Shown here in pieces: positions 5,951-52,178 of a stretch of DNA of 64,000 bases. The stretch is taken from assembly GCA_965246835.1 (NCBI GenBank), contig CBDFFQ010000001.1, positions 2,558,451-2,622,450 on the forward strand. Direction: 5' to 3'. The notes below the pieces were generated by a model. The model saw nothing but the letters and a program-made list of their open reading frames with translations, did not search any database and was not told the DNA's origin. The translations under genes and the position numbers were made by a program. Origin of the DNA: Acetobacteraceae bacterium. Lineage in GTDB: Bacteria; Pseudomonadota; Alphaproteobacteria; Acetobacterales; Acetobacteraceae. The number at the start of each line of letters is the position of its first letter. Positions within the stretch are counted from its first letter, which is position 1.

Positions 5951-6025
5951 TGGGGCGTCGCCAAGCGGTAAGGCAGCGGACTTTGAATCCGCCATTCGAA
6001 GGTTCGAATCCTTCCGCCCCAACCA
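5951..6025 (+). tRNA. tRNA-Gln (anticodon TTG)
   Basis: TGGGGCG acceptor stem pairs with CGCCCCA. Anticodon loop CTTTGAA. T-arm GGTTCGAATCC. Encoded CCA end. Confidence 0.9.
6009..6025. repeat. attL: 17-bp direct repeat (tRNA-Gln 3' end)
   Basis: TCCTTCCGCCCCAACCA is identical to 52162..52178. Confidence 0.85.
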
Positions 6026-8630: not shown

Positions 8631-8896
8631 CTTCACGCAACGCTGTGTGGGAGGCGTGCCATTGTCCGCCGGGATGATAAGCTCTGCTTGCTCCCTGCTT
8701 TTCAAGCTGGCACGGTCCCGCCCGAATGAGCAGGTATCGAGTCGGTGGACCAAATCAAGAGCGGGAGATATGGCGTTGTTCCGGGACAGTTCTCCGGCCT
8801 TTTAGCGCGCTTGCCATCCGGCTGTGAGGGTCCAGCCTGTGTTCGCGGCATAGGGGCGGAATTGCCGCTGGTTAACCTTCGGCTGAAGGCATTCTA

Positions 8897-9952: not shown

Positions 9953-11534
9953 CGTGATAGCCACGGATAGTTTCGAGACCGACTTCTCCGTCGGCCCACA
10001 GGCAATCGCCAACTACAGTCGCCTGAGCTACACGATGTGGCACGCGCTGGCGGAATTCATCGACAACTCCACCCAGTCCCGCCTAAACTACGGCTCCATC
10101 ATAGATGATGTCCTGAACCAGGAGGGTACGCCCCTGGTGGTGGATATCACCCACAATCGCGTCGCCAAAACGATCACAATCTCCGACAACTCGATTGGCA
10201 TGACCAAGGACGACTTGGTTGACGCATTGAAGATTGCAATGCCGACGAAAGACAGCCGCGGTAGGTCGAAGTACGGGATGGGCATGAAGACAGCTGCCTG
10301 CTGGATAGGAGCTGTCTGGGAAATAAGCACGGTCGAGTGGCTGAGCGGAACTCGCTACTCAGCCGTCATCGACGTCGATTCTGTGAGCAAAGGCGGCAGG
10401 ATAACTATTCTGAGTAGCCCGGTCGGAGAAAACGAACACGGCACTTCGATAACCATCTCAAAGCTTCATCGGAATGTTCAGAAACGAACAGAGGGGACAA
10501 TTCGCGACTATCTTGGCTCGATGTATCGCTTTGACCTTGCGCGTGGCGCGACAAAGCTTCTCTATAACGGTACCGAAATAAAGCCCATCGATGAGTATGA
10601 CGTGGACACGGACCCCGCTGGGAACTTAATGCGGATGGACCTCCCAGGTCTGACCATCAACGGTAAAGCCGTGACGGGATGGGTAGCCATCCTGAAGAAG
10701 GGCGGCAGGAAATTCGGTGGGTTTTCGCTGTTTCAGAATGAACGCCAGATTCAGGGCTTTCCGAACGCCTGGAAGCCAAAGGTCATATTCGGCGGGGAAG
10801 ACGACGAAGGGGCCAACAATCTTGTGGCTCAGAGACTGACCGGAGTGCTCAATCTGGACGGGTTCGAGGTGTCACACACCAAGGATGCCATACTCTTTCA
10901 GGGGGATGAGGAAGAGGAGCTGGAGACGTTCCTCAAAGGTTTCACGAAGGACTATCGCGACTACGCAAAGAATAGACGGGGCCCTAAGAAGACCACCTGG
11001 ACGCGGGAGAAAGTGCGCGACCTGATGGTCGACCTGAAAAAGGAGTTTAGCAGTCCGGAATTCAAAGATACCGTAACGAACTCGGTTCTTCCGCCTATCG
11101 AGGTTATTCTGGCCGGCAACCAGAAGCAGCTCGAAAGCATCGAGCCAGCCGACCATATTGGCACGTTCGACATTCCGCCGGACCTGAAGGTGGTTGTCTC
11201 CTTCCTGGAGAAGAGTGTCTACGAGCCCTACGTGACGCTCGTCGCGGGTGCGAACCCTGGCACGATCCATGTCATTATAAACGGATTGCACCCCTATTAC
11301 TCATCGCTGGAAACCGGCGAGGCGATCCACGAGTGCATGAAGCAGTTTGTTTATGATGCGATAGCCGAATACCGAGTACGCAAGCTGTCCAGCAAGATAA
11401 GCTGGGAAAGCGTGCGGCTATTGAAAGATGACCTTCTGAAGGCGAAACTCGTTCAGATTGAGAACCGGGCGGCAGCAGAGCAGGACGGGGACGAGGTCGA
11501 TACCGGCAAGGTTGATCCAGACACGGACGAGTAA
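9945..11534 (+). CDS. GHKL-superfamily (MORC/HSP90-like) ATPase
   Basis: N-box AEFIDNS, G1 ISDNSIGM, G2 YGMGMKTAACW. Start set at ATG 9945 (MNDVIATD), which overlaps the MTase stop. Confidence 0.75.
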   Translation: MNDVIATDSFETDFSVGPQAIANYSRLSYTMWHALAEFIDNSTQSRLNYGSIIDDVLNQEGTPLVVDITHNRVAKTITISDNSIGMTKDDLVDALKIAMPTKDSRGRSKYGMGMKTAACWIGAVWEISTVEWLSGTRYSAVIDVDSVSKGGRITILSSPVGENEHGTSITISKLHRNVQKRTEGTIRDYLGSMYRFDLARGATKLLYNGTEIKPIDEYDVDTDPAGNLMRMDLPGLTINGKAVTGWVAILKKGGRKFGGFSLFQNERQIQGFPNAWKPKVIFGGEDDEGANNLVAQRLTGVLNLDGFEVSHTKDAILFQGDEEEELETFLKGFTKDYRDYAKNRRGPKKTTWTREKVRDLMVDLKKEFSSPEFKDTVTNSVLPPIEVILAGNQKQLESIEPADHIGTFDIPPDLKVVVSFLEKSVYEPYVTLVAGANPGTIHVIINGLHPYYSSLETGEAIHECMKQFVYDAIAEYRVRKLSSKISWESVRLLKDDLLKAKLVQIENRAAAEQDGDEVDTGKVDPDTDE

Positions 11535-12688
11535 TGTCACCGCTGGCACTTCGAGCGTGGCAAGAGCAGGCGTTGCCTCGATGGCGTGCACAAGGTCATC
11601 GGGGAATTGTCGAGGTGGTCACCGGGGGCGGAAAGACTGTCTTTGCGCTTGCGTGCATTGCCGACCTTAAGGCGGAAACGGTGCTCATCGTCGTTCCGAC
11701 CGTCGCTCTCCTGGAGCAGTGGTGGGCGGAGGCAGCCTCGTTCTTCGGTCTGGATCTGGATGAGATAAACATCATCTCCGGCAACCGTTCGGTCGTGAGC
11801 GGCACCATCAACATCGCCGTTCTAAATACGGCGGCGAAGCTCGCAGGCAGACGCGGTATCAAGGACTGCTTCCTTATCGTAGACGAGTGCCACAAGGCGG
11901 CGACCCCGCAGTTCAGAGCCGTTCTCGAAATTCCGAAATTTGCGGCACTGGGCCTGTCGGCTACCCCGGAGCGCCAGTATGATGACGGTCTGGCGCAAAT
12001 TCTAATTCCGGCGCTCGGCCCGGTCATTTACCAATACAGCTACCGCGAAGCCATTCTGGACGGCGTGATCGTCCGCTTCGAGCTTAGGAACATCGTCTTC
12101 GAACTGGAGGCTGACCGAGCAGCGGAATACGAGAAGCTGTCCAAATCCATTGCCCGGTCGGTTGATCGATTCGGGATTGAGTCCGAGCAGGCAATTGCCC
12201 TCCTGCTCCGACGGACAAGGCTGGTAAACCTCAGCCTGGAACGCATTCGTATCACTATCAGGCTCATAAACCGGCACAAGGGTGCGCGCATCCTCGTTTT
12301 CCACGAGGACATCGAAGCGTGCGATCTGATCCTGCAATTCCTCAGGGAGGCGGAGTTCCGGGCGGGGGCCTACCACTCCAGACTTCCGGCCCGGCAACGT
12401 GTCGAGTCACTTGCGGCCTTCCGCCGGGGTGACCTCGACATCCTGATTACGTGTCGTGCGCTTGACGAGGGTTTCAATGTTCCTGAAGCGCAGGTGGGCA
12501 TCATCGCGGCCAGTACGGCAACGCGCCGTCAGCGCATTCAGCGACTGGGCCGCGTCCTCCGACCTGCGGCAGGTAAGAGCGAAGCGGTTGTGTATACCTT
12601 GGTTGCCACGGGACCCGAGGTAGGCAGGCTGAAGGAAGAGGAAGATGGATTGGCGGACCTGGCGACAGTCACCTGGGTCCATGCATGA
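11534..12688 (+). CDS. SF2 DEAD/DEAH-box helicase (type III restriction res-like)
   Basis: Walker A TGGGKT, DECHK, SATP, QRLGRVLR. TAATG overlap with the upstream gene. Confidence 0.8.
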   Translation: MSPLALRAWQEQALPRWRAQGHRGIVEVVTGGGKTVFALACIADLKAETVLIVVPTVALLEQWWAEAASFFGLDLDEINIISGNRSVVSGTINIAVLNTAAKLAGRRGIKDCFLIVDECHKAATPQFRAVLEIPKFAALGLSATPERQYDDGLAQILIPALGPVIYQYSYREAILDGVIVRFELRNIVFELEADRAAEYEKLSKSIARSVDRFGIESEQAIALLLRRTRLVNLSLERIRITIRLINRHKGARILVFHEDIEACDLILQFLREAEFRAGAYHSRLPARQRVESLAAFRRGDLDILITCRALDEGFNVPEAQVGIIAASTATRRQRIQRLGRVLRPAAGKSEAVVYTLVATGPEVGRLKEEEDGLADLATVTWVHA

Positions 12689-13458
12689 AAAAGATGTTTG
12701 TCGGCAACTGTTCGCCGGAGACGCTCTTCGAAATGACGGACCCCGACAGCGTGTCGGAGACAGCCTTTGAGGCGTGGGTCGTCCGGGCACTGGCCTGCGC
12801 GTTCCCGAGCTACCGCTGCGTTATCTTCACGGGCTCGTTTCAATACGAAGGCCGTACATTCCGGCCGGACCTGGCCTTGCTGTCGCGTGACCTGTCTCAC
12901 TGGTTCATCATTGAGGTCGAGCTGACGACGCACTCGCTTTACCAGCACGTTCTGCCCCAGGTGCGCGCATTCAGATACGGCGAGCCACAAGCTGATTGCG
13001 CGCCCGGTCTGGCTACGGCGCTGGGTCTGCCGCTTGGGCAGGCGGAGACGCTGGTCCGGCGCATCCCGTATGGCATTGCAGTTGTAGCTAATCGAGATAA
13101 TCGAGACTGGTGGGTAGCGCTCAACGCGCACGAGATACAGATGCTCACCGTTTCAGCGTATACGTGCCCAAAGGGGATTGAGGCTTTGGAGGTTGATGGC
13201 TCCCTGGAAGTCGTGAAGGACAGTCTGGGGTTCGGGATTTATTCCGCAGCGGTTCGGTCACTTCGGTTCAGCCCGCTGCTCAGGGTTGTCGGACCGCGCG
13301 TTTTGATACGGGACTATTTCGGAGGCCTGTCCTGGTGGCTCGTTCATCGTGACGTAGATGCAACCTGGCTGACCAAGGAGCTCGGGACACCTGACATCGA
13401 CGATAGCAAACACGTGCAGCTTGTGGCGACCCGCGACGGCGGATTATCCCTAAGATGA
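12685..13458 (+). CDS. hypothetical protein, possible PD-(D/E)xK-fold nuclease
   Basis: ATGA overlap with the helicase. FRPDLALLSRDLSHWFIIEVELTTH resembles a restriction-endonuclease-like core, but the lysine is not obvious. Confidence 0.5.
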   Translation: MKKMFVGNCSPETLFEMTDPDSVSETAFEAWVVRALACAFPSYRCVIFTGSFQYEGRTFRPDLALLSRDLSHWFIIEVELTTHSLYQHVLPQVRAFRYGEPQADCAPGLATALGLPLGQAETLVRRIPYGIAVVANRDNRDWWVALNAHEIQMLTVSAYTCPKGIEALEVDGSLEVVKDSLGFGIYSAAVRSLRFSPLLRVVGPRVLIRDYFGGLSWWLVHRDVDATWLTKELGTPDIDDSKHVQLVATRDGGLSLR

Positions 13459-13981
13459 CCGGGGCGGCAGGCTGGGTAACGCGTCTGAAACCATCGTCAA
13501 ATTCCGGCCGGGGGCACGCTCAGTTTAGAACACCACTGAGGCTGCCAATGGGTCAGGGCGGTCTAGAGGAGGCACCGCTCCGACTCAATGACGAACAGCA
13601 CGACTATTTGGGACCGCTGCTAAGCCGCCTTCAATCCTTGGTCACGGGAGACGTACTGGGCATCCGGGAACTCGGCACGGAGTGCGGCGACGACCGCTGC
13701 ATCGGCCCCCCACAGGACGAGAGCTGACCCTTTGCCGGATCCAGAATTCCGCCCTTGCCCAGAGCCGTCAATAAATTTCACCCGACGCTTCAGCAGCAGC
13801 ACGTCAGCGACACCGTAAACACTTGCTGACCACCACCGGGTATCAAAGCTTCCGGGGACAAGCCCCACGACCAGCGAGGCCTCACCAGTATCGACCGCTC
13901 GGGCGCAACGTTCGACGCAGGCGACGATTTCGCGTCCGTACGGGGGATTCGCGTACACAACACCCTCCCACCGCGCCACTA

Positions 13982-15033
13982 GAGCGGTTTCCATTCATTC
14001 TGGCTCATACCCGGCGGCAGTGAAGTAGCTGGCGCAGTCCTGCGCGGTAAAGCAGGGAAGCGCGTTGCGGATCACGTCCCATAGGTCGTCGATCGTGCGT
14101 GCTGCTGCCTTGCGCAGGTAGGCTTTGAGCTTGGAGAAGGCATTCTCGATTGGGTTGAAGTCGGGGGAGTAGGGCGGCAGGTAGCGTAGCGTGGCCCCAA
14201 CTGCCTCGATCGCCCGCCGCACGTCTGCGCCTTTATGCGCGGGCAGATTATCCATGATGACGGTGTCGCCTCGGTGGAGCGTGGGCACCAGCACCTGCTC
14301 GATGTAGGCCTGGAAGGCGATGCGGTTCATCGGGCCGTCGAGGACCATGGGCGCGGTCATGCCGCTGACCCGAAGCGCGCCGGTGAAGGTGGTCGTCTTC
14401 CAGTGACCATGCGGCACGGCGGCGCGGCAGCGCTCGCCTTTGCGGGCGCGGCCGCGGATCCGGGCCATCTTGGTCGATGCGCCGGTCTCGTCGATGAAGA
14501 CCAGGCGCTTGGGGTCGAGGTCAGGCTGGCCTGCGAACCAGGCTCGCCGTCGGGCTGCGACGTCGGGCCGCTCCTGCTCGGCTGCGTGCGCTGTTTTTTT
14601 TGAAGGTGAGGCCGTGGCGGTCGAGGCAGCGCCAGATGGTGCTGGGGCCGAACGAGGCGCCGTGGTGGTCGCGCAGCAGGTCCGACAGCTCAGCCAAGCT
14701 GATGTCCTTCTGGGCCGCGACCGCTGTCAGGATCACGCCGCTGAAGGCCTCGATCCGACGCGAGCGGGTGTCGCCGCCCTGCGGCTTGGGCGCGACGGAC
14801 CCGGTCGTATTGACTGCCTGCACCCACCGGACGGCGCTCGCAGCTGAAACACCAAACCGCTCCGCCGCAGCGCGCCGAGACATGCCGTCTGCAACCGCCG
14901 CAACAAGCCGGGACCGTAGATCGACGGAAAGAATCTTCCCCATGCACGCTGGCCTCCTAACCAGCCTGCATGGTGAATCACATCACGCCCGCGTCGGGGA
15001 ATCCCTTTGATTCAGACCGGACGAGAACCGCTC
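13982..15033 (-). mobile_element. IS630-family insertion sequence, copy 1 (1052 bp)
   Basis: Terminal inverted repeats GAGCGGTT(C/T)C. Flanked by TA/TA within CTAG. All six-frame ORFs are identical to copies 2 and 3. Confidence 0.9.
13995..14943 (-). CDS. IS630-family DDE transposase (two frames joined at a T8/A8 run)
   Basis: orfA is an HTH part (14521..14943). orfB is the DDE part ([28 protein letters not shown]). The A8 run lies at 14594..14601. Confidence 0.85.
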
Positions 15034-15553
15034 TAGTGCATCCTCCTCGCGGGTGATGTAGCGGATTGCGGGCACAGGGCTTCGCTCCATCCCCGGCGAG
15101 AACGCATCTACATCGAACTGCTCGCGGCCCAGGGCCTTGAGAATACGGGCGAGCAATGGCTTGGGCGTGTACCATTCGACATGGGTACTGGGTCCGCGCC
15201 CGAAAAAGGGTTTCACCTCATCTTCGCCGGTCACTGCAAGCCGTTCGAAGGCACGATGTGTGTCCTGGGACGCACCGACATCATTGGCAGCCGTCGGCCG
15301 CTGCTTTCCGCGCTTCGAGACATGCCGCCGCAGCGGCTGCTCTCCCCGTCGCGCAAGGCAACCATCCAACTGACGAAGAACCCACTCATGGAGTGGCGCG
15401 CCGTCATTGGCTGCATGCCGGTGAAGGCGGTCCAGGTCCTCGCGATAGAGATAAAGCGAAGTGGCCGAGGTCTCGCGCTTGATGCCGGTCCGGGTATCAT
15501 CCTTTTCGTCGCGGCGGTTTCGCGTCGGCGGGGTTGTCACCGCCGCTTTCGTC

Positions 15554-15569
15554 TCCGTCCCGGGACGGA
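15554..15569. repeat. motif A copy 2 (perfect 16-bp palindrome)
   Basis: TCCGTCCCGGGACGGA, inside the MTase CDS. Confidence 0.8.
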
Positions 15570-15822
15570 CGACCGCGACCTCTCGCGCGGCTTTCACCAG
15601 CGGAGCCAGGACGTGCTTGCCCAGCCACGCGACGACCGGAATGGACAGGCCGTCACCGATGCACTTCACAGCCGACGACAGGGCATCCGGAAGGACGAAA
15701 TCATCCGGCAGACCCGACAACCGCGCCAACTCCCGACCGGAGAAATCTCGGATGCGGACACCGGTCGGGTCGGCACGAAGCACCAGCTGGCGCGCACGCC
15801 CCGCGGTGAAACACCGGGCAAT

Positions 15823-15840
15823 CCCATCGGTGTAGATGGG
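15823..15840. repeat. motif B copy 6
   Basis: CCCATCGGTGTAGATGGG, inside the MTase CDS. Confidence 0.65.
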
Positions 15841-16847
15841 AAGTGCAGGAGTGCATCCTTCACGCCGGTCGGTACGCTGGGCGGCAATGATGCCGAGCAC
15901 GGAGCTATCGGCCCGCATGCGCTCCACATCAGCCACGTCGGCTGCTCGGCAACCGGCAAGGATGCGCTCCACACGGTCCGGCTTGAACCAGGCGTGACCA
16001 TCGTCATCGTCCAGCAATTCTGCCAGAGACGGCACCGGAGCGTCCGGTTGCGGCATCGTCAGCCACAACCATTCCCGTCGCGCAGCCAGAGGAAGGCGGG
16101 CGACGGCCTGCACGAGTGGCGCGGGGTGCCATGCGGGGTCCGGCTTCTTCAGCAGCATGTTCGAAGGGACGACCACATCGCGCCGGATGGCTACGATGAA
16201 CAGGCGCTTACGCAGAACCGGACGGAACCGGTCGGCATCGATGACCACAGCGCCGACCCGGTAGCCGAGGTTCAGAAAGGTCTGAACAAGGGCCGCAAAG
16301 TCTCGGCTCTCAGCATGAGAGGCGAACCGGGTCACATTCTCGCAGCAGACTACCGGTGGCATCGTGCCGAGCAGACTGTGTTCACCCAGGATTCGGGACA
16401 CATCGAACACGAGGCTGGCCCGCATACCCTTGAGGCCTGCGCCGTCTCCGAGCGCTGAGTGGTTCACACAGGGAAAGCTGACCCAGAACAGGTCAGCGAC
16501 AGTCATTCCGACAGCGCGGACTTCTTTGATGCTCCGTTCATCGAAAGGGACATCGGGATGATTCTGCCGGAAAACGGCAGCTTTGAGCGGGCTGTTGTCG
16601 TTGGCGAGAGCAGTCTTGAAAGCGGGGGCGAGAGCAATGCCTGCGCCGCCGATACCGGCGAAAAACTCAATGAGAGTGTAGGTTTCCTGCTGATTGTCGT
16701 CCATTTTGAAATTCCGAACACGCGCGCACGTTCGGACCGGCTGACCGGCGTAGGGTCAGGGGTCCCGTCGGGGGCGGGCCGCGCGCCGGATGGCACGGGC
16801 CGGAGCGCGTTATCATTTCGAAACAGTCGGTTCGGAGGTTCATCGCT

Positions 16848-17414
16848 TTAAGTCCAGTCGGGCGTTGTGAGGTCCACACGGAACAGGCCGTCGGCAATCT
16901 CGCCTTCGACGACGTTGATGATCATGGTTCGGCGCGCGTGCTGAATGACGTTGTTGCGGTCATCGTCGTTGGACCAGTCCATGCTCCGGGGAGTCCACAT
17001 CAGCGGCCGGCGAACAAGGCGCTGCTTCACGAGAAGCGCCGGGCCGCAGATGAGCATCGGCTCGGCGTTACCCGTGACAGGGTTCAGCGTCAGCGACTGC
17101 TGGAGTCCGTCGATGTGGCCGGTTTCGTTTACAACCAAGCGATAGGGCCATTTCGGGCGGGCGGAGTTGCCGGCCACATGCCATCCACCAACGAGCGAAC
17201 GGCAGATGACGGCAGTGGCGGCCGCCATACCGGCATTCGAAAGCGGCCTTCCGTCAAGGAACAGGCGAGTGTGCTGCCAGGCCGTATCCGGTCGTTTAAT
17301 CAACAGGTGGAAACCCGGTCCGTGAGACACGGGCACCGGCTCGCTGACATCGAGCAGTTCCGGCCGGTCGAGGACGCGTCCGTAGACCGGGTGTTCAGGA
17401 TCGAAGTACTTCAT
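16848..17414 (-). CDS. hypothetical protein
   Basis: 188-aa ORF with coding-like composition. Same strand as the MTase and just upstream of it. No motif recognised. Confidence 0.55.
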   Translation of the reverse strand: MKYFDPEHPVYGRVLDRPELLDVSEPVPVSHGPGFHLLIKRPDTAWQHTRLFLDGRPLSNAGMAAATAVICRSLVGGWHVAGNSARPKWPYRLVVNETGHIDGLQQSLTLNPVTGNAEPMLICGPALLVKQRLVRRPLMWTPRSMDWSNDDDRNNVIQHARRTMIINVVEGEIADGLFRVDLTTPDWT

Positions 17415-17801
17415 GTTTGTGGTTCCTCATTTCGGAACCCACACGATGAACAGTCAGACACCCTTACCGCGGAGTGCGGAAAGGCAAACTGGCCGACGCA
17501 TGGGAAAGAGACCCGCCGCGTGCGCGGAAGGTCAGCACGTGACCGCCCCTTCGGATGGTCAGACGGCTATGAGGGAGGTGCCCGAGATGCCTGCGACGCA
17601 AACCGAAAACAGCATCGCCACGCCACCCTTTACTCGGGTAGACGCGGCTGATACTGTGCTGTTGCGGCGGGAGTTGCTTGGCATGGGGGCGCTCTACTGA
17701 CAGCCAGTCACTCGTTTGTCAATATACTTATTTTTCGGCCAGTAGCTTGACCAAGCTATGGTATGCTGTTCGGTAGTTCGCCACCAAAGCTTGTACGAAC
17801 G

Positions 17802-18356
17802 TCAGGTCTGCGGCAGAACGCCCATCCTCACCAGAGCCGCCCCTGCCACTGCGCGTTGCATCTCCGTCGGCCGTTCCGGCGGCAGCAACTCCGACATCGG
17901 CCCGCCAAGGCTTGCCGTTCCCTCCTCTCCGGGCAGACCGAGCGCACGCAAGCCGGTCGGCTGCCCATCTTTGCCACGCAGGATTTCTCTTACGGACGAA
18001 AGGCTGACCACCTCATTGTCGACCCTGCCTTGGACGACAACAGCGACAGCTTCGACGCGGCGCTCTGATTCTGAAGGAGCGACACCGGGTGTCGGCTGGC
18101 CGACTACCATCCAGACTTCCGAAAAGTGACTCGCGAGGACGGCATCCTCGGCGATGGCGAGAAGCCGTACGGCCGTCATGGACGCGGCTTTCATGTCGGC
18201 GCTGCTGAAGTCCGGGACGACCGGAATCAGGGTGCCGTCGGCGGTGGTCAGGGCGACGAAAGGCGCGAGAGAGCCGTCACGAAGCAGGACGGCCTCGGAG
18301 TGCTGAGCATCGTGGTCAAGGCGGGCGTGCAGGTCGGTAAGGGTGAGGTCGGCCAT
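17802..18356 (-). CDS. hypothetical protein
   Basis: 184-aa ORF. A motif A copy lies 47 nt upstream of its start. No motif recognised. Confidence 0.55.
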   Translation of the reverse strand: MADLTLTDLHARLDHDAQHSEAVLLRDGSLAPFVALTTADGTLIPVVPDFSSADMKAASMTAVRLLAIAEDAVLASHFSEVWMVVGQPTPGVAPSESERRVEAVAVVVQGRVDNEVVSLSSVREILRGKDGQPTGLRALGLPGEEGTASLGGPMSELLPPERPTEMQRAVAGAALVRMGVLPQT

Positions 18357-18399
18357 ACCAAGGTGGTCGCACGGGGGGCCGGGATTGTCAGCTATGCTG

Positions 18400-18415
18400 T
18401 CCGTCCCGGGACGAG
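18400..18415. repeat. motif A copy 3
   Basis: tccGTCCCGGGACgag, intergenic. Confidence 0.8.
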
Positions 18416-18838
18416 GGGCGAATGGTTAATGCACAAAACCCAAGGCCCACTGGTAGGTTTCTTCGATGCGGGCCGCGATCTCTGCCTCAGTCAACTCGTG
18501 AAGCCCGTCCGCAAGTTCATCGCAATCGTTTAAGTATATGAAGGCCGCGACTTCAGCCGGCTCAAACCGGGTCGCCAACTCAATGAATCTTCGAGCCGTG
18601 TCATTCTCAAAATTTGGCACCTCATGGCCGTCCTCGTCTTCATCGGGATAGTAAGTTTCGCCGTCCTCTTCGATTCCGTCCCGACTCAGGCGGAGCAAGT
18701 CAGATGCTTTTGACAGGGATACCCTCCCGTCAAGCGCTACAAGCATAGTCAGAAGCTCGAAATCCGATTCGGCCATCGGGTCAGGGATCCCGACTTCCAA
18801 AGCAATGCATTCTCCCAGAGCCGTTTGATAACGAACTA

Positions 18839-19890
18839 GAGCGGTTCTCGTCCGGTCTGAATCAAAGGGATTCCCCGACGCGGGCGTGATGTGATTCACC
18901 ATGCAGGCTGGTTAGGAGGCCAGCGTGCATGGGGAAGATTCTTTCCGTCGATCTACGGTCCCGGCTTGTTGCGGCGGTTGCAGACGGCATGTCTCGGCGC
19001 GCTGCGGCGGAGCGGTTTGGTGTTTCAGCTGCGAGCGCCGTCCGGTGGGTGCAGGCAGTCAATACGACCGGGTCCGTCGCGCCCAAGCCGCAGGGCGGCG
19101 ACACCCGCTCGCGTCGGATCGAGGCCTTCAGCGGCGTGATCCTGACAGCGGTCGCGGCCCAGAAGGACATCAGCTTGGCTGAGCTGTCGGACCTGCTGCG
19201 CGACCACCACGGCGCCTCGTTCGGCCCCAGCACCATCTGGCGCTGCCTCGACCGCCACGGCCTCACCTTCAAAAAAAACAGCGCACGCAGCCGAGCAGGA
19301 GCGGCCCGACGTCGCAGCCCGACGGCGAGCCTGGTTCGCAGGCCAGCCTGACCTCGACCCCAAGCGCCTGGTCTTCATCGACGAGACCGGCGCATCGACC
19401 AAGATGGCCCGGATCCGCGGCCGCGCCCGCAAAGGCGAGCGCTGCCGCGCCGCCGTGCCGCATGGTCACTGGAAGACGACCACCTTCACCGGCGCGCTTC
19501 GGGTCAGCGGCATGACCGCGCCCATGGTCCTCGACGGCCCGATGAACCGCATCGCCTTCCAGGCCTACATCGAGCAGGTGCTGGTGCCCACGCTCCACCG
19601 AGGCGACACCGTCATCATGGATAATCTGCCCGCGCATAAAGGCGCAGACGTGCGGCGGGCGATCGAGGCAGTTGGGGCCACGCTACGCTACCTGCCGCCC
19701 TACTCCCCCGACTTCAACCCAATCGAGAATGCCTTCTCCAAGCTCAAAGCCTACCTGCGCAAGGCAGCAGCACGCACGATCGACGACCTATGGGACGTGA
19801 TCCGCAACGCGCTTCCCTGCTTTACCGCGCAGGACTGCGCCAGCTACTTCACTGCCGCCGGGTATGAGCCAGAATGAATGGAAACCGCTC
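18839..19890 (+). mobile_element. IS630-family insertion sequence, copy 2
   Basis: Same ends and the same ORFs as copies 1 and 3. TA duplication in CTAG. Confidence 0.9.
18929..19877 (+). CDS. IS630-family DDE transposase (frames joined at A8 19271..19278)
   Basis: Identical to the copy 1 protein parts. Confidence 0.85.
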
Positions 19891-20488
19891 TAGACATGAA
19901 ATCATAATGGATGCGCGCTTGTCCGAAATGGTCGGTATTCCAGCCGTTTTGACATTCAGCCTGGAGTGCTGGCCCCCCCAAATTTGAAACGGTTTCGGAT
20001 TGGCAGTCGAGTTCACAACTGGAGCCGGCCGGTTCTCTGACGACGCGGATGCGTTGGGATCTGCCGCAGCCTTCAATGGCCAGAGATAGCTCAGGAACTG
20101 CCTCATGAGTGACGCTCTATCAAAGGATCCCACTGCTGGCACAGACCTAAATCGCTGTCACTCTTTCCACGGTCGCCGTCCCCTGATGCACGCCAGCACC
20201 TCTGCCGAAAGGACTTCCTTCTGAAGGCAAACAGCTTACACCGGGATTGCTGGCCGAGCACACTGTCGGAAGGTGGTGTTGGAATAGGCCGCATGAGTTA
20301 TGCCGTTCACACGCGGACGTCCGCGTCCGATCCAAGGTTTATCGTCCTGCCTCATTGATTTGCTAAAAAATACGTTGGCGGCAGCCCAACTGTCAGTCGC
20401 CCAGCACTCTCAGCAAGATCTACCAGTACGCCAGACCTCGAAAAATTGAGACATCGGATCACCTATTGCCCCTGGCCGAGAAATCGGC

Positions 20489-21571
20489 TCAATCGCTTCG
20501 GCTGCTGCGCACGGCCAAAACACCCATGAGAATGCGATCGATAGCGTCTGGCCCGTCGGCCAAAGCGGGCGGGCCATCAACAAATTCCAAGCCAGCATCG
20601 ACCGGGTAAACGCTCATCTTGCCTATCCCGGCTGTTACCGCGTCCTGAACGAACGCCTGAAATTCGGCATTTGGGGCCGCGTTCGCGCGAAAGACGAAGC
20701 CGGCGATCAGGTCGCATAGCTGCAGCGACGAGCACTCGTGGCTACGGGCGCTGGTCGTCGACGTTACAGATATTGGTAACGTGAGCGTCTTCTTGTTGCC
20801 CACTTGGATGACTTGAGCGGGATGGGTCGCATCGGTCATCTCCGACCAGCGCCGACTACGCGCGAAGAAATGCTTGCTCTCATCGTGGAAGACCGCGAAC
20901 GGCCCTGTGTGACGGCTCTGCCAGTGAGCCATGCTCGACACTAAGCTTGTAACATGGATATCGTTCGAATCCTTGAGTAGTGACAGATTAGTACCTTGGA
21001 GGCGATTGACTCCCTCCACCATCAAGCTCAGGAAGGGGGTTGTTTCCTCAGGCGCACTGAGTGTTACATTCTTGAGGGCCGCCTGAAGACGGCTAAGCGT
21101 GTTGGCATCCGGCGCGCGTCCAAACGCGTTGTAAGCCGCAAAAAGAACTGTCAGAGCATCTTTGTTCAGGAAATTGTCAAACGCGAAATAAGCCATATTA
21201 GCATAGCGTGCAGCATAGTCATCTTTGTAGAAATCATAACCATTTGCACGCACCACTGGCTCTGTAAGATAGTCAACCATCTTGCAGAGCACTGCAAAGT
21301 GCTTATTTATTTTGGTCGCAACAAAGCGTTCGGGCTGTAAGCCTACCTCCTGTGCAAATGAAAGAAATGCACGACGACCCTGAGATCGCTTAAATATTTC
21401 CTTCGACTTAATTTCCGGCCCTTTTTGAAGCGGGAAGCAGCGCCTTATTATGTCGGTAGCCTCATCCTCCTGGATGTCCGTGCTGCCAATTGTGAAGTAG
21501 GGCTGCTCAGAGTCGAGTAACTCAGTGCCAGTATTGCCACTTTCGTCAAAGTAAATTCTCGTAACGTCCAT
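20489..21571 (-). CDS. DUF3800-like protein
   Basis: Start set at MDVTRIYFDESGNTG, the characteristic DUF3800 N-terminus. Lies in an AT-richer block. Confidence 0.65.
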   Translation of the reverse strand: MDVTRIYFDESGNTGTELLDSEQPYFTIGSTDIQEDEATDIIRRCFPLQKGPEIKSKEIFKRSQGRRAFLSFAQEVGLQPERFVATKINKHFAVLCKMVDYLTEPVVRANGYDFYKDDYAARYANMAYFAFDNFLNKDALTVLFAAYNAFGRAPDANTLSRLQAALKNVTLSAPEETTPFLSLMVEGVNRLQGTNLSLLKDSNDIHVTSLVSSMAHWQSRHTGPFAVFHDESKHFFARSRRWSEMTDATHPAQVIQVGNKKTLTLPISVTSTTSARSHECSSLQLCDLIAGFVFRANAAPNAEFQAFVQDAVTAGIGKMSVYPVDAGLEFVDGPPALADGPDAIDRILMGVLAVRSSRSD

Positions 21572-21866
21572 CCTGCCCTCTTGTAGCGCAAAGCTGGTCC
21601 AGGCACTAAGTCTGACCTGCCGCACGCCCCCCCAAAACACCCCAGAAGGGGATAATTTAGCCTACTGCGGCAAGACCGCAAATGGCCGCTTTCCGTCACA
21701 AGGGCTCACCCGTCCACATGGGTGCTCCCTCCCGAGACACCCACGCCGAACATTCGTCCTGGGACGAACCCGTCTCGTCAGGGTTAGCTTGCCGATATCC
21801 GAGACAAACAGCTGACTTTCCGGACCGGGGTCTAGGATAATCCGAGACACAGCAACGGAGTTTTGG

Positions 21867-22487
21867 ATGGCAAAATACGGATATGCACGGGTAAGTTCAG
21901 ACGACCAGAGCCTGGACGTACAGCAGGAGCAGCTGCGGGCGGCGGGGTGCGACGTGGTGCGCGGGGAACACGCATCGGGAGCGTCCCGGGACGGACGCGG
22001 CGAACTCGCGCTCCTGCTCCAGTTCCTCCGCGCCGGTGACAGGCTGGTCGTCACCCGGGTGGACCGGCTGGCGAGGAGCCTTGCCGACCTTCAGGACCTG
22101 ATGCGCGAACTGAAAGCAAAGGGCGTGACGCTGGAAGCCACCGAACAGCGCATTGACACCGGCACGTCCGGCGGCAAGGCGTTTCTGGACATGTTGGGCG
22201 TGTTCGCGGAGTTTGAAACGAACCTGCGGCGCGAGCGTCAGATGGAAGGCATCGCCAAAGCCAAAGCCCGCGGGGTCTACAAGGGCAGACCGGCGAAGAT
22301 AAGGGCCGACCGCATCAGCGAATTACTCGACGGCGGTATGACCCCGACTGAGGTGGCCCGCGAGATGGGGATTGGGAGGGCGAGCGTATATCGAGTTCTG
22401 AGCAGAAGCACGCCGCTGACGAGTTGCACAACACGCCACCATTCCGTCGATGAACCGGCAGTTACTACGCAGGAAGCGGGTATTTAG
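21867..22487 (+). CDS. serine recombinase (resolvase/invertase family)
   Basis: MAKYGYARVSSDDQSLDVQ catalytic-Ser motif. C-terminal HTH (TPTEVAREMGIGRASVYRVL). Confidence 0.9.
   Translation: MAKYGYARVSSDDQSLDVQQEQLRAAGCDVVRGEHASGASRDGRGELALLLQFLRAGDRLVVTRVDRLARSLADLQDLMRELKAKGVTLEATEQRIDTGTSGGKAFLDMLGVFAEFETNLRRERQMEGIAKAKARGVYKGRPAKIRADRISELLDGGMTPTEVAREMGIGRASVYRVLSRSTPLTSCTTRHHSVDEPAVTTQEAGI
21980..21995. repeat. motif A copy 4
   Basis: agcGTCCCGGGACgga. In the recombinase CDS, read as S-R-D-G. Confidence 0.8.
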
Positions 22488-22567
22488 CGGCCCACGAGGA
22501 CGCAACGGTATCCGTCAGTGACAGGCAGAGCTTCCTCCGAGTCGGGCGCGTCGGGTAAGCCTGAAGT

Positions 22568-23998
22568 ATGGCAAACCGCCGATTCGTTTTCCTCGGTCAC
22601 GCGAACCCGCATGACAACGCATTTACCCTGTGGCTGGGTGCTCGACTGAGCGCCGCAGGGTTTGAGGTTTGGTCAGACCTGCGCCAGCTCCACGGAGGCG
22701 AGACGTTCTGGAACGACATCGAGGACGGACTTCGGCAACACACCGCAGTCTACGTTCCGATCCTGTCAAATTCCTCAGTGAACCGCGAGCGACGCGGCTT
22801 CCACGATGAAATCGCCATGGCCGTCCAGATTATGAGAACCCCGAACATGGAGCGGTTCATACAGCCGGTCATGATCGAGCGGGTTCATCCGGTCCCTCCT
22901 CCGCTTATTCAGCTCAACTACATCGACTTCACCGGAGGCTGGGCGAACGGCCTTCTGAGGCTCATCACTGCACTGGAAAAGTCCGGCGTTCCCAGAACGG
23001 ACAACCCGCCGACACAGGCGGTTTCGGCTTGGCGTGGCTATCAGGCAAGCGCCGCCGGGGCTGCGCAAGAGGCGGACGATCCCGAGCGTCTCTCGACCAC
23101 ATGGTTCGGCATCGACGGTCTGCCGCCCCGCATTCGTCTGGTTAAATCGCCTGTGGCATTCGACACCTGGACCAGGCTGCTGACGAATCATGGTGTGCCG
23201 CATGCCATCCATGGGGATGAGGTGCTTACTTTTGCCTCCGCGAAGCACATCGAGGAGCGACTGGGCGCGGACATCCCTGTCAGGCAATCGGCAGAGCACC
23301 GCACGGAACGTTTCCTCGTGGGTGACACGGGAAAAAACGGACTGCGTATTCGACCCGGGGAAGCGCAACGGCTCGTCGCCGGCATGATCAACCGGAGCTG
23401 GGACATTTTTGCTGCCTCTCGTGGGCTGCACCGTCATGAACTCTCGAAATCGACCGCATGGTTTTTCCCGCTCGACCTTCTTGGCGGAAAAACCCGGTTC
23501 GAGAAGGAAGTCGGCGGAATCGGTGAAAGAGCGTTGATCGGTCGAAAGGGGAAGTTGGGAGTGCGATGGCATTTTGCCCTGTCGGCAAGGTTCGAGTTGC
23601 GTGAGCCAAGCCGCCTGATCGTCCGCTCGCATGTGCTGTTCAGCCAAGGCGGGACGGCGATGTTGGACAGCAAGAAAGCCCAGCGGCTGCGCAAATCGCT
23701 CTGCAAAGGTTGGTGGAACGACGAATGGCGGGACCGGCTTCAACTTGCCATGGCATACTTGAGCCAACGCGAGGGAGCGCTCCGTCTGCCGCTTCGGCAC
23801 AGCCCGACCCTGCGGCTTACCTTGGGTGACGCATGGGTCGATGTGGCAGCCCGTTCCATGCTCTTCGAGAGCGTGTCTTCGTTCCAGCGCCCACGCACGG
23901 AGGCAGAGCGGGAAGAGCCGAACGACAAGGCATTCGACGAGGAGGTTCGCGCGCCGGAGCTACCGGACGGTGACGATGACGACGAGGACGAGAAGTGA
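22568..23998 (+). CDS. TIR-APAZ protein (SPARTA-type effector partner of a short pAgo)
   Basis: N-terminal TIR-like FVFLGHANPHDNAFTLWLGARLSAAGFEVWSDLRQLHGGETFWNDIEDGL...HDEIAMAV, followed by about 330 aa. The stop overlaps the pAgo start. Confidence 0.8.
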   Translation: MANRRFVFLGHANPHDNAFTLWLGARLSAAGFEVWSDLRQLHGGETFWNDIEDGLRQHTAVYVPILSNSSVNRERRGFHDEIAMAVQIMRTPNMERFIQPVMIERVHPVPPPLIQLNYIDFTGGWANGLLRLITALEKSGVPRTDNPPTQAVSAWRGYQASAAGAAQEADDPERLSTTWFGIDGLPPRIRLVKSPVAFDTWTRLLTNHGVPHAIHGDEVLTFASAKHIEERLGADIPVRQSAEHRTERFLVGDTGKNGLRIRPGEAQRLVAGMINRSWDIFAASRGLHRHELSKSTAWFFPLDLLGGKTRFEKEVGGIGERALIGRKGKLGVRWHFALSARFELREPSRLIVRSHVLFSQGGTAMLDSKKAQRLRKSLCKGWWNDEWRDRLQLAMAYLSQREGALRLPLRHSPTLRLTLGDAWVDVAARSMLFESVSSFQRPRTEAEREEPNDKAFDEEVRAPELPDGDDDDEDEK

Positions 23999-25467
23999 CC
24001 GTGCGAAAGCTCCTGAAGCTGCCGGAGCCACTTCTTCGCGTTGGACATGCACAGCTGACGGATAATCCGAAAGACGGTCTGTTTCTCTTCGGGCCGGTTA
24101 TCGATGCAGAGCACCCACGCCAACTCCGGCTCGGGATCATCGGAACCACGGAGGGCTTACTTCGGTATCAGCGTTGGGCAAAGCGCATGCGGGGGTTCAT
24201 TCCCGCGCCTGAGAAGGCCCGTGCCTTTCACATGGCGTGGCCCGGCTTCGAAGCCGCTTTCAGCTGCGAATGGCCGGAAGAGCCTGTTGCCACCCTGGTT
24301 GTTGACGGCACCGAAATATTCAATGCGATCCATATCCGGGACCGCCATGAGGCAATTTACAAAACTGTCGACCTGTTCCTTCAGCCTATGCTGGCCCACA
24401 CACGCAAGGAGGAAAGCAGGCCTACTCTGTGGTTCGTCGTCATCCCGGAGGACATATACAAGTTCGGCAGGGAGAAATCGCTGATACCGCCCCACCTCAG
24501 ACAGCCCTCATCAAGCCGGGCCGGTGACAAGGTGGTAAGGGCCAGCCTGAAGCTTGGTCAGGGGCTTCTGTTAACCGACGACGCTGAAGGTGCGCGGCTT
24601 CACCGGTTTTCCAGGGATTTCCACAATCAGCTGAAGGCCCGGCTGCTGCGAGAGCGCATTGCCATTCAGATCGTCCGGGAGACGACGCTTGCGCCCGAGG
24701 ACTTCCTGACGAACTTCGGCAAGCCTGCGCGGGTCATGGAGGATGAGGCGACACGGGCGTGGAATCTCGGTGTCGGAACCTTCTTCAAAGGTGAGGGGAA
24801 GCCGTGGAGCCTGGCCGCCGCTCGGCCGGGGGTGTGCTACATAGGCCTTGTCTTCAAGAAGGTTCCGGGGGGACCGGTAGGGTATTCTGCCTGCGGAGCC
24901 CAGATGTTTCTGGACTCCGGCGTGGGCACGGTGTTTCGAGGGGCCATGGGTCCCTGGCGTAGCCCTGAGGACAAATCATATCACCTCTCGGAAGACGCTG
25001 CCGCCGACCTCGCGAGGGTCGTCATCGCCGAGTTTGAGCGGAAGCATCACGGCGCACGGCCGACCGAGTTGTTCATCCACGGACGCATTGCCTTCTCCGA
25101 TGCTGAGTGGCGTGGCTTTTCAGCCGCTGTCGATTACCGAACGAATCTCGTCGGGGTTCGCATCCGTCAGACCGATGAACTGAAGGCATTCACACCGGGT
25201 GAGATGCCATTGCTCCGGGGTCATGCCCTAATCCTGACACCGACAAAGGCTTTCTTGTGGAGCAACGGCTTTGTGCCACGCCTGGACACGTATCCCGGCT
25301 GGGAGGTCCCGCGCCCGCTGGCGATTGACGTCGTCCGGGGCGAGGCGGGCATGGAAACGGTGCTCGGTGACGTGTTGGCGTTGACCAAGCTCAACTACAA
25401 TTCCGCAGGTTACGGGTCCGGCCTTCCGGTCACTCTCGGCTTTGCCGATGCTGTCGGAGAGATTCTA

Positions 25468-26519
25468 GAGCGGTTCTCGTCCGGTCTGAATCAAAGGGAT
25501 TCCCCGACGCGGGCGTGATGTGATTCACCATGCAGGCTGGTTAGGAGGCCAGCGTGCATGGGGAAGATTCTTTCCGTCGATCTACGGTCCCGGCTTGTTG
25601 CGGCGGTTGCAGACGGCATGTCTCGGCGCGCTGCGGCGGAGCGGTTTGGTGTTTCAGCTGCGAGCGCCGTCCGGTGGGTGCAGGCAGTCAATACGACCGG
25701 GTCCGTCGCGCCCAAGCCGCAGGGCGGCGACACCCGCTCGCGTCGGATCGAGGCCTTCAGCGGCGTGATCCTGACAGCGGTCGCGGCCCAGAAGGACATC
25801 AGCTTGGCTGAGCTGTCGGACCTGCTGCGCGACCACCACGGCGCCTCGTTCGGCCCCAGCACCATCTGGCGCTGCCTCGACCGCCACGGCCTCACCTTCA
25901 AAAAAAACAGCGCACGCAGCCGAGCAGGAGCGGCCCGACGTCGCAGCCCGACGGCGAGCCTGGTTCGCAGGCCAGCCTGACCTCGACCCCAAGCGCCTGG
26001 TCTTCATCGACGAGACCGGCGCATCGACCAAGATGGCCCGGATCCGCGGCCGCGCCCGCAAAGGCGAGCGCTGCCGCGCCGCCGTGCCGCATGGTCACTG
26101 GAAGACGACCACCTTCACCGGCGCGCTTCGGGTCAGCGGCATGACCGCGCCCATGGTCCTCGACGGCCCGATGAACCGCATCGCCTTCCAGGCCTACATC
26201 GAGCAGGTGCTGGTGCCCACGCTCCACCGAGGCGACACCGTCATCATGGATAATCTGCCCGCGCATAAAGGCGCAGACGTGCGGCGGGCGATCGAGGCAG
26301 TTGGGGCCACGCTACGCTACCTGCCGCCCTACTCCCCCGACTTCAACCCAATCGAGAATGCCTTCTCCAAGCTCAAAGCCTACCTGCGCAAGGCAGCAGC
26401 ACGCACGATCGACGACCTATGGGACGTGATCCGCAACGCGCTTCCCTGCTTTACCGCGCAGGACTGCGCCAGCTACTTCACTGCCGCCGGGTATGAGCCA
26501 GAATGAATGGAAACCGCTC
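25468..26519 (+). mobile_element. IS630-family insertion sequence, copy 3
   Basis: Same ends and ORFs as the other copies. TA duplication in CTAG. Confidence 0.9.
25558..26506 (+). CDS. IS630-family DDE transposase (frames joined at A8 25900..25907)
   Basis: Identical to copies 1 and 2. Confidence 0.85.
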
Positions 26520-26652
26520 TAGTCGCTGCACCTATCGAAGATACGCCGCCCCTCCCATTCCGCTTCTACATGTAGCCCGCTCCGGGCCTGAGCGCTGGCT
26601 CAGCCGTTGGAGGACCTTTGCAGGCGTTGCACGTCTCCCCGGTTCGCTCGTC

Positions 26653-30089: not shown

Positions 30090-30458
30090 ATGAGCGAAAC
30101 AAAGACACAATTGAGTAAAGCGGAAGGCGGCCTGCGCTGGCTCGGCAAGCAATCTCTGCTCGGCGCACGTGACGGCTGCATAGCTCTCGCTGCGATGACG
30201 GCGATGACCTACAGCGCCACGGACAGCCTGACCCCGGACATGCTCAGGCCCCTCGCCGCTGCCTGGGATATTACCCTTGCTGACCATGAGGCGCTTCTCC
30301 GGGTCGCCTTCTTCGGAGGAGCAATCATCTCGGCAGCCCAGACCGCAGTGGGGTTCGCCGGCCTGTCGCTGGTCGCCCGCCTCCTCATCGCTGCGGGCAA
30401 AATCCTGTTCCGAGCGCACGTCCGTCCAGTGATGGAGGCGCGCGATGGCGGACGGTAA
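30090..30458 (+). CDS. small membrane protein
   Basis: Start set at ATG 30090 (MSETKTQL). Two hydrophobic helices. The stop overlaps the start of the 1002-aa gene. Confidence 0.5.
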   Translation: MSETKTQLSKAEGGLRWLGKQSLLGARDGCIALAAMTAMTYSATDSLTPDMLRPLAAAWDITLADHEALLRVAFFGGAIISAAQTAVGFAGLSLVARLLIAAGKILFRAHVRPVMEARDGGR

Positions 30459-34396: not shown

Positions 34397-34435
34397 TGTC
34401 AACCGCCTTGTCTGCTGAGGCCGCCACCATGAAGG

Positions 34436-35847: not shown

Positions 35848-35870
35848 CATGAAGGTCGCGTTCCAAAACA

Positions 35871-46241: not shown

Positions 46242-46727
46242 CTAACTGTGCAATCCTGCCAGTCTCTTAATGGCAACCACGGCCGGCCCGGATATCTCAA
46301 TGCGGACGTCCGTGCCCCAGCGCTCCGACACTACCGCCTGAGCAGACAGGCCAGCGTCAAGGTGTGGCGCGAGGTCAGCCGCCACAGCACGGGGCAGGTA
46401 TCCGCAGCGTATGCCGTAAGCGGAATGCACGGCCAATGCATTCCCATCAACGCGGTTGTCCGGTTCGCGCCTCAGTTGAAGCTGGTCGCCCTCGGAGAGG
46501 CTAACCGACGGTGGATCACCGAGCGCGTAGAAAAGCCCTGCAATCCTAGATTTAAGTGGTCGGTTTAGATCCACCACACCCCGCAAACCGTCGAGGGCAG
46601 CCTCAACTTGGTCAGCGAACGTCTCGGCCGTCCTGTGCGTGACCGGGGCCGCACGGACGGCCAGCACTGCGGTGCGGATGTGGTCAATTGCGGTGTTGAC
46701 GGACTCTGAGAGCGGCAGCGTGTTCAT
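46242..46727 (-). CDS. HIRAN domain protein
   Basis: GDQLQLRREPDNRVDGNALAVHSAYGIRCGYLPRAVAADLAPHLDAG matches the HIRAN signature. Start set at MNTLPLSE. Confidence 0.65.
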   Translation of the reverse strand: MNTLPLSESVNTAIDHIRTAVLAVRAAPVTHRTAETFADQVEAALDGLRGVVDLNRPLKSRIAGLFYALGDPPSVSLSEGDQLQLRREPDNRVDGNALAVHSAYGIRCGYLPRAVAADLAPHLDAGLSAQAVVSERWGTDVRIEISGPAVVAIKRLAGLHS

Positions 46728-46811
46728 CTGCCAGAATACCGGAGCGCGGTGCGGAACACAGCTATTATTGTTCCGCTTGCGTATGAACATCGATGTTCGT
46801 CAAAATCGTAG

Positions 46812-52161: not shown

Positions 52162-52178
52162 TCCTTCCGCCCCAACCA
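52162..52178. repeat. attR: 17-bp direct repeat
   Basis: TCCTTCCGCCCCAACCA, identical to 6009..6025. Confidence 0.85.

Follow-up and report, generated by a model that had tools for sequence, protein, structure and literature searches.

Why do three identical copies of one insertion sequence (IS) each interrupt a gene that had been assigned to a defence or anti-defence system? This question is raised by a stretch of 64,000 nucleotides, referred to here as the window, that covers positions 2,558,451 to 2,622,450 of contig CBDFFQ010000001.1 (Acetobacteraceae bacterium, GenBank assembly GCA_965246835.1) and holds a 46-kb genomic island at window positions 6026-52178. A first-pass annotation of the window had taken the pattern to say something about immunity. 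Our results argue instead for a simpler origin, in which the insertions are probably the work of a recently active IS630-family element that is specific for CTAG, and in which the choice of genes follows from where CTAG occurs.

Three identical copies were inserted separately into three genes

The three copies are located at 13982..15033 on the minus strand, within a gene for a C5/Dam fused methyltransferase (g1); at 18839..19890 on the plus strand, within a gene that we call g2; and at 25468..26519 on the plus strand, 17 codons short of the end of the short prokaryotic Argonaute (pAgo) gene of a SPARTA operon. Each copy is 1052 bp long, and pairwise nucleotide comparisons gave 0 differing positions throughout, which bears out the identity asserted in the first-pass annotation. 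A repeat finder returned the same three arms at 100% identity and no other long repeats in the window. Every copy is flanked as cTA/GAGCGG...CCGCTC/TAg (written to the full ends, cTA/GAGCGGTT...AACCGCTC/TAg), so the target is CTAG with its TA duplicated, and the first and last bases of the element, G and C, respectively, rebuild CTAG at both junctions. The ends GAGCGGTT form terminal inverted repeats that match at 8 of 8 positions, with partial similarity further inward.

Excision of each IS together with one TA yields single open reading frames (ORFs) of 676, 220 and 508 amino acids, in agreement with the earlier statement that the elements sit at TA within CTAG and that the gene halves are contiguous and in frame. 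The insertions had also been called independent, which is upheld. The restored frames are supported by homologues that run across the junctions, namely, relatives of g1, distant relatives of g2 with invariant residues on both sides, and the solved pAgos of SPARTA systems. The identity of the copies and the restoration of the frames are well beyond chance. Copies 2 and 3 are direct repeats whose starts are 6629 bp apart, and copy 1 has the opposite orientation; a deletion between the former or an inversion involving the latter by homologous recombination, as had been suggested, is therefore possible in principle. No such recombination has occurred so far, because the gene halves still adjoin their own IS.

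Five further copies share the target but lie in other contexts

Exact-protein look-ups with both IS ORFs yielded another five copies, each of them in ENA assembly ERZ26165376, whereas those with the TIR-APAZ and the truncated pAgo of the window gave no match. Our census consists of the three window copies and these five loci. The additional copies differ from the window element by 0, 0, 1, 1, and 2 bases (position 225 in L001 and L004; two differences in L005). Three of them, identical or 1 nucleotide off, are on a 260,627-bp contig whose name suggests circularity and a coverage of 146x, and the other two are on low-coverage linear contigs. Four of the five entered CTAG: inside a glycosyltransferase ORF of >1000 amino acids, in an intergenic region, upstream of an integrase fragment, and at the stop codon of a peptidase S41 gene, where the copy is itself split by IS66. 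The remaining one entered a TTAG where a LysR gene begins. None of the five hit a defence gene.

TA is present on both sides of all eight known copies, and removal of one TA restored the frame in four cases (g1, g2, pAgo, and the glycosyltransferase). Seven of the eight insertions are thus at CTAG, a motif that accounts for only 1.9% of the TA dinucleotides of the window, and one is at TTAG. The finding of eight copies at different sites that differ by 0 to 2 nucleotides suggests that the element has been transposing.

Two of these loci have features of their own. At L005 (3911-7808), an IS66-family element has entered the IS630-family copy and duplicated 8 bp of it (IS positions 635-642); the TAG stop of the peptidase S41 gene is preserved there because the IS begins with G. 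On the 260-kb contig (L002/L007, upstream of the IS), one copy lies ∼2 kb from, and not inside, an N6_Mtase/Eco57I (type IIG-like) restriction-modification gene.

CTAG is depleted in the host and concentrated in acquired DNA

Once restored, the 60.8 kb of the window contain 20 CTAG sites, compared to ∼203 expected from base composition. The density of CTAG rises from 0.06/kb in the host flanks to 0.43/kb in the island and 1.18/kb in the plasmid-like contigs that carry the same IS; in related chromosomes it is 0.12 to 0.36/kb, except for one locus with a guanine-plus-cytosine (GC) content of 0.67, at 0.95/kb. With densities that differ to this extent, the target of the element is concentrated in foreign DNA. 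Within the island, 9 CTAG sites are intergenic and 10 are coding. The genes g1 and g2 and the SPARTA operon have exactly one CTAG each, and it is the occupied one; that of the SPARTA operon is the insertion position in pAgo. The first-pass annotation had stressed that the mobility and replication backbone was untouched. There are indeed no hits in it, but the genes for the integrase, the relaxase, and the DotA/TraY protein contain 0 CTAG and the PrimPol gene contains 1, at its stop codon only. Since its genes lack the motif, the backbone is largely untargetable rather than spared.

The bases next to CTAG were also distributed unevenly. A at position -1 and/or T at position +1 was found at 6 of 7 occupied CTAGs and at 5 of 17 unoccupied ones in the window (P = 0.018); when the flanks on the plasmid-like contigs were included, the unoccupied count was 13 of 49 (Fisher P = 0.0045, a post hoc comparison). 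These numbers hint at a wider target preference, ACTAG/CTAGT, that narrows the usable sites further: the window has eight such favored sites, three of which are occupied.

We evaluated the distribution of the hits over the available sites with categories that were all defined post hoc. At least two of three hits among the 3 clearly defence-related sites had a P value of 0.046, three of three among the seven coding sites of the left arm had a P value of 0.031, and three of three in coding sequence had a P value of 0.14; for the observed clustering, P was 0.09 to 0.12. The association of the insertions with defence genes is not well beyond chance. The idea that the pattern informs on immunity is therefore not upheld, as CTAG availability suffices to account for it, the five other copies are in nondefence contexts, and the P values span 0.03 to 0.14. 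Defence-directed targeting was rejected as unnecessary once the CTAG sites had been counted. Our literature search retrieved nothing directly relevant on a systematic bias of IS elements towards defence islands.

The insertions interrupt a fused methyltransferase, a gene of no recognisable function, and a SPARTA pAgo

All three targets had been described as defence or anti-defence genes. This description holds for the C5/Dam methyltransferase and for the SPARTA pAgo but not for g2, which has no recognisable function.

The restored g1 (13620-16704 without the IS, minus strand) encodes a 676-residue fusion of a C5 cytosine methyltransferase with a phage-type Dam. In the restored protein, PF00145 matches at 3.7e-34, the PADLOC model DruM/MTase_II covers residues 6-376, and PF05869 (3.7e-16) covers residues 510-648. 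The N-terminal part (15034..16704, minus strand; residues 1-556) comprises the complete C5 domain, a linker, and the first portion of the Dam-type N6-adenine methyltransferase domain, the remainder of which, with its NPPY motif, belongs to the C-terminal part (13620..13981, minus strand; residues 557-676). At the junction, ...EEDAL/VARWEGVVYANPPYG, the cut falls after residue 556, directly ahead of the NPPY catalytic motif. The earlier statement that the insertion inactivates the methyltransferase was too strong: the Dam-type domain is split after 556 of 676 residues and is predicted to be destroyed, but the C5 domain is intact and would be spared. Intact homologues that contain both PF00145 and PF05869 and span the junction have 673, 671, and 670 amino acids, with 68%, 58%, and 50% identity, respectively; no intact g1 allele of >68% identity was found for an empty-site comparison. 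The homologues in L011 and L012 adjoin a restriction-like cassette, a context that may point to an anti-restriction role for the fused methyltransferase; further genes of the island are found in L012 as well.

The restored g2 (18426-20142 without the IS) encodes 220 amino acids and has an acidic C-terminal half. Residues 1-83 are encoded at 19891..20142 and the acidic residues 84-220 at 18426..18838, both on the minus strand. The protein had no Pfam match, no PADLOC match, and no homologue in a word index, and an exhaustive phmmer search yielded 10 distant relatives, none of known function. In their alignment, the invariant residues are F52, Q58, H59, L62, G68, and P70 before the 83/84 junction and L84, R86, Y87, and G92 after it. 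Because invariant residues are present on both sides of the junction, g2 is a real gene that was cut inside its most conserved block. An intact gene for a DUF3800 protein (20489..21640, minus strand; PF12686, 1.8e-09) is located upstream of g2. No DUF3800 neighbor was seen beside the relatives of g2, few of which have a readable context, as their contigs are short.

Two small minus-strand genes without family matches are found between g2 and g1, at 16848-17414 (188 amino acids) and 17802-18356 (184 amino acids). Both proteins are conserved beside the methyltransferase in L012 (35% and 54% identity, respectively), and the 184-residue one also has a match in L011. If the minus-strand genes form an operon, these two may be subject to a polar effect of IS copy 2.

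In the SPARTA operon, the TIR-APAZ gene is intact (22568..23998, plus strand), with matches to PF13676 TIR_2 (3.9e-17) and to the PADLOC model Aga_TIR-PNTD1-PNTD2 (4e-112), and its stop codon overlaps the start codon of the pAgo gene in GTGA (23995-23998). Residues 1-491 of the short pAgo (MID-PIWI) are encoded at 23995..25467 on the plus strand, from where the ORF runs into the IS for 16 foreign codons, to position 25518. The displaced 3' end (26520..26575, plus strand) consists of the duplicated TA followed by the last 17 codons, VAAPIEDTPPLPFRFYM, and the stop codon (native tail, 26522-26575). The restored protein of 508 residues matches the PADLOC model pAgo_I (1.8e-183) and, over residues 3-508, the SPARTA pAgos of PDB entries 8j8h/8ifk (3e-115), and it keeps the conserved SPARTA C-terminus ...GEIL.A....TPPL.F.[FY]Y[IM]. 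The pAgo had been described as cut into halves. It is interrupted, but the cut falls after residue 491 of 508, so that the second part has only 17 residues, which are replaced by 16 IS-encoded ones. The nearest database relative of the pAgo has 74% identity, and neither an intact identical allele nor any intact allele above 74% was found for an empty-site comparison.

The interrupted pAgo is incomplete, as the C-terminus that closes the pocket for the guide 5'-phosphate has been displaced. In a SPARTA structure, the ligands of the Mg2+ that holds the guide 5'-phosphate are Asn468 and, putatively, the terminal residue Ile507 (PMC11156904). Since a terminal residue putatively coordinates this ion, it is reasonable to infer a loss of guide binding, and the truncated pAgo has probably lost this ability. 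Judged from its sequence, the locus is a disrupted SPARTA and not a working one. SPARTA responds to the detection of plasmids with the depletion of NAD(P)+ and kills cells that contain highly transcribed multicopy plasmids, and TIR-APAZ is catalytically active as an NADase without pAgo (PMC9097488). On a speculative note, a pAgo shortened to 491 of its 508 residues might be unable to sense and yet not release the NADase, with TIR-APAZ still held in an inactive heterodimer. The place of the cut is, however, also that of the sole CTAG in the operon.

The transposase is split at a run of eight A residues

The element is an ordinary and apparently uncatalogued member of the IS630 family. In copy 2, ORF1 (18929-19351; 140 amino acids) matches the Pfam families HTH_23/HTH_28 and ORF2 (19404-19877; 157 amino acids) matches DDE_3 (5.8e-32). 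The family assignment of the first-pass annotation was confirmed with the NCBIfam equivalog NF033545 for IS630, which the fused 315-residue transposase matches over model positions 2-295 of 299 with 230 bits (3.1e-68), the cut-off being 100 bits. The catalytic residues D151, D231, and E266, in the numbering of the fused transposase, have DD34E spacing. The frame changes at an A8 run (element positions 433-440, TTCAAAAAAAAC) that is located at 19271..19278 in copy 2 and at 25900-25907 in copy 3, both on the plus strand, and at 14594-14601 in copy 1, on the minus strand. When the run is read as A7, a single ORF of 315 amino acids results. The first Met of ORF2 corresponds to residue 159 of the fused protein, past the catalytic D151, and ORF2 alone therefore cannot be the enzyme; a complete one requires either recoding or an A7 form.

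The nearest annotated relatives are plasmid-borne genes labeled "IS630 family transposase," with ∼70% amino acid identity. The three relatives that we compared are all flanked by C-TA...TA-G and have an A-run at the same place: A7G in Roseomonas mucosa, A8 in Sphingobium herbicidovorans, which aligns in two pieces (split), and A7 in Sphingobium sp. TomTYG65, which aligns in one piece (in frame). Searches for the element itself returned little. An exact match to the IS left end was absent from GTDB representative genomes, the left end and the A-run region were absent from JGI metagenomes, and a PLSDB plasmid search at high identity gave only two partial matches at ∼75% nucleotide identity (<76%).

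The hallmarks of recoding are present, with two ORFs joined at a slippery homopolymer, a run that is kept in relatives, and a catalytic ORF that is incomplete alone. The IS630 family has known cases of both frameshifting and transcriptional realignment (PMC5009743). Beyond its possible role as a slippage site, the A-run may also work as a heritable on/off switch. Recoding at A8, a heritable A7/A8 length switch, and transposase provided in trans would each be compatible with the sequence, and we consider them equally possible.

Two closely related copies of a sister IS on Sphingobium plasmids (L094, 643-650; L095, 631-637) differ in this run, one having the split A8 form and the other the in-frame A7 form.

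Target availability probably accounts for the insertions

Altogether, our results are most readily explained by a recently active, CTAG-specific IS630-family element that made three separate insertions into the island, an account that we regard as probable and that needs no preference for defence. The element would be active through recoding at its A8 run, which is conserved in relatives, and the near-identity of the eight copies shows that it has multiplied recently. The depletion of CTAG in the host and its excess in acquired DNA of lower GC content would channel the element into the island and into plasmids, and within the island it would enter only those genes that happen to hold a CTAG. 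The C5/Dam methyltransferase gene, g2, and the SPARTA short pAgo gene, with exactly one CTAG each, would have been broken in this way. As the requirement for CTAG confines the element to few sites in acquired DNA, three hits in the island are unremarkable in kind. Several points weigh against this account. Occupation of 3 of the 19 island sites within 9.4 kb is a mild clustering (P of about 0.09 to 0.12), and two or three of the three hits are in cargo genes (nominal P of 0.03 to 0.05), so that selection or local hopping may contribute. In addition, that the truncated pAgo and the methyltransferase have lost function rests on inference, and the copy count and the site statistics cover the window, out of a source contig of 3,311,259 bp, and the five further loci.

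Selection would offer a different reason for the choice of genes, if insertions that disarm a costly or self-harming immunity were favored and kept; for example, the loss of SPARTA could let the host keep the 260-kb circular replicon with the same IS. The NAD(P)+ depletion that SPARTA triggers upon plasmid detection (PMC9097488) fits this idea, as do the three copies, identical or 1 nucleotide off, on the 260,627-bp contig of the only metagenome with this IS, the location of all three window insertions in coding sequence when 9 of the 20 CTAG sites lie between genes, and the nominal P values of 0.03 to 0.05. However, these P values are weak and come from categories chosen post hoc, g2 has no known immune role, the hit in the methyltransferase spares the C5 domain, the five other copies occupy neutral or unrelated sites, and the plasmid-like contig and the chromosome may belong to different cells. 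We thus consider selection unlikely as the main cause. An elaboration in which the IS is a disarming device delivered by the plasmid itself, where the IS of a large plasmid would enter the sole SPARTA CTAG, survivors would be selected, and the truncated pAgo might restrain TIR-APAZ while no longer binding guides, is more doubtful still. Local hopping, in which a first insertion into the island would have seeded the other two at nearby CTAGs, appears about as unlikely as selection. It would explain why three identical copies are found within 11.5 kb and why the IS fills 3 of the 5 consecutive CTAG sites from 13563 to 25465, and among eukaryotic Tc1/mariner relatives a preference for reinsertion close to the donor site is documented. 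On the other hand, the clustering is not significant (P of 0.09 to 0.12), identical copies are also present on other contigs, and the cut-and-paste mode by which the IS630 family moves (PMC2170065) would normally vacate the donor site. Selection and local hopping could both add to target availability, which needs neither of them, and selection is compatible with it rather than opposed to it.

The two remaining explanations concern the origin of the repeats. Copies 2 and 3 are direct and bracket a 5.6-kb segment of cargo, as would be expected if they were the arms of a composite transposon that brought in the DUF3800 gene, an intact gene for a serine recombinase of the resolvase/invertase type (21867..22487, plus strand; PF00239, 2.5e-38), and SPARTA as a unit. 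The outer flanks do not form a single target site, however, and g2 is in frame across copy 2 and pAgo across copy 3, so that both genes were already whole in place; we rejected this origin, which has next to no probability left. Homogenisation of the repeats during assembly or polishing, which would make "very recent" an overstatement, is conceivable in that the source is a metagenome assembly (a 3,311,259-bp contig, with the other copies in ERZ26165376). The same assembly keeps single-base differences between copies (L001, L004, and L005), and the unique flanks and restored frames make the three insertions real regardless of polishing, which leaves this explanation highly improbable. CTAG availability in acquired DNA therefore stays our preferred explanation for the three insertions.

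The island is integrated at tRNA-Gln and has a variable cargo

The island is integrated at the tRNA-Gln gene (5951-6025). A 17-bp attachment repeat, TCCTTCCGCCCCAACCA, is found at the 3' end of the tRNA gene (6009..6025, plus strand), and the right attachment repeat (52162..52178, plus strand) is a direct repeat of this 3' end. GC content is 0.55 to 0.65 inside the island versus 0.70 to 0.74 outside. The flanks contain housekeeping genes, with an ETF-QO/TPR/IspE/tRNA-Gln synteny that is common to Acetobacteraceae-like genomes. The host is an uncultured, high-GC, Acetobacteraceae-like alphaproteobacterium and has no close reference, since its IspE is ≤67% identical to those of Acetobacteraceae-like genomes.

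The backbone includes genes for a tyrosine integrase (6303-7838), a relaxase (42335-44260), and a PrimPol-AAA_25 protein (49258-51288), and the island also encodes an HTH_17/MerR-type DNA-binding protein, HTH_17 being a Pfam family to which excisionases also belong. Type IV secretion is represented by a single recognisable component, a DotA/TraY family protein of 1002 amino acids (30445-33453; TIGR04346, 1.4e-85). The island may be either a mobilisable element or a conjugative one in decay.

A restriction-like cassette (7962-13458) that is convergent with g1 encodes a metallophosphatase, an N6/N4 methyltransferase, an HATPase_c_3 protein, a ResIII/PbeA-like helicase, and a 257-residue protein. 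At the same position, L012 (12218-19293) has a C5 methyltransferase, HATPase_c_3, Z1, and DUF4420, and L011 (3211-11787) additionally has Vsr and AIPR. This looks like a variable defence slot beside a conserved methyltransferase. The related island L012 has the metallophosphatase, the fused methyltransferase, and two small genes in common with the window, contains a different cassette, and lacks g2, DUF3800, and SPARTA. From this gene content, the methyltransferase can be counted among the conserved genes of the island, and SPARTA, DUF3800, and g2 among its variable cargo.

The island contains a second type of mobile element, an IS256-family (Mutator-type) element at 34435-35848 with a transposase ORF at 34494-35693 on the minus strand (PF00872, 3.6e-121). 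Its 26-nucleotide inverted repeats are at 34435-34460 and 35823-35848, with ATGAAG on both sides. Excision with an 8-bp overlap gives an ORF of 313 codons, but the flanking 8-mers do not match. In the right arm, a gene for a HIRAN-domain protein (46242-46790, minus strand) has a weak match to PDC-M03B, a component of a PADLOC candidate system (5.4e-09) and an unoccupied CTAG at 46546; it is possibly a further defence gene, one that was not hit by the IS.

Implications and comparison with known systems

The window illustrates how the sequence preference of an IS, combined with the avoidance of that sequence by the host, funnels insertions into acquired DNA. Because defence genes live in acquired DNA, such insertions can look like the targeting of immune genes. 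Current understanding is unchanged, and the case advises caution: the available target sites should be counted before meaning is read into a few IS hits. It also adds an apparently uncatalogued IS630-family element with a putative A8 recoding site, as well as a natural and datable example of a SPARTA system that an insertion ahead of the final 17 Argonaute codons would have disabled, which is a modest curiosity.

With respect to the interrupted genes, g1 has the architecture of the orphan or multi-specific methyltransferases of mobile elements (PF00145 with the phage-type Dam PF05869), as found in the three intact homologues of 670 to 673 amino acids. In contrast to these homologues, its Dam-type domain is split before NPPY while its C5 domain is whole. 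As in MapSPARTA and CrtSPARTA, the TIR-APAZ gene of the window directly precedes and overlaps the gene for a MID-PIWI pAgo, of 508 residues here, but unlike in those systems, this pAgo lacks its last 17 residues and has 16 IS-encoded ones in their place.

The closest comparison for the element itself is IS630 of Shigella sonnei, in the IS630/Tc1-mariner family, which is likewise ∼1.05 kb long and has one transposase with HTH and DDE_3 (DD34E) domains and short terminal inverted repeats. IS630 prefers TA in 5'-CTAG-3' according to Tenzen (1990, 1991), as cited in PMC2170065, and the element of the window shares with IS630 proper the duplication of TA and a strong preference for TA inside CTAG (7 of 8 here). 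It differs in that its transposase is split at A8 and in that its G...C ends rebuild CTAG on both sides, and it may additionally prefer ACTAG/CTAGT. In the split it resembles IS elements that are recoded at homopolymer runs, such as IS630 of Roseiflexus with transcriptional realignment and members of IS1, IS3, IS5, and IS630 with frameshifting, in which a DNA-binding ORF upstream and a catalytic ORF downstream are likewise joined at an A run (PMC5009743). As in these elements, the loss of one A in the message is predicted to give the full enzyme.

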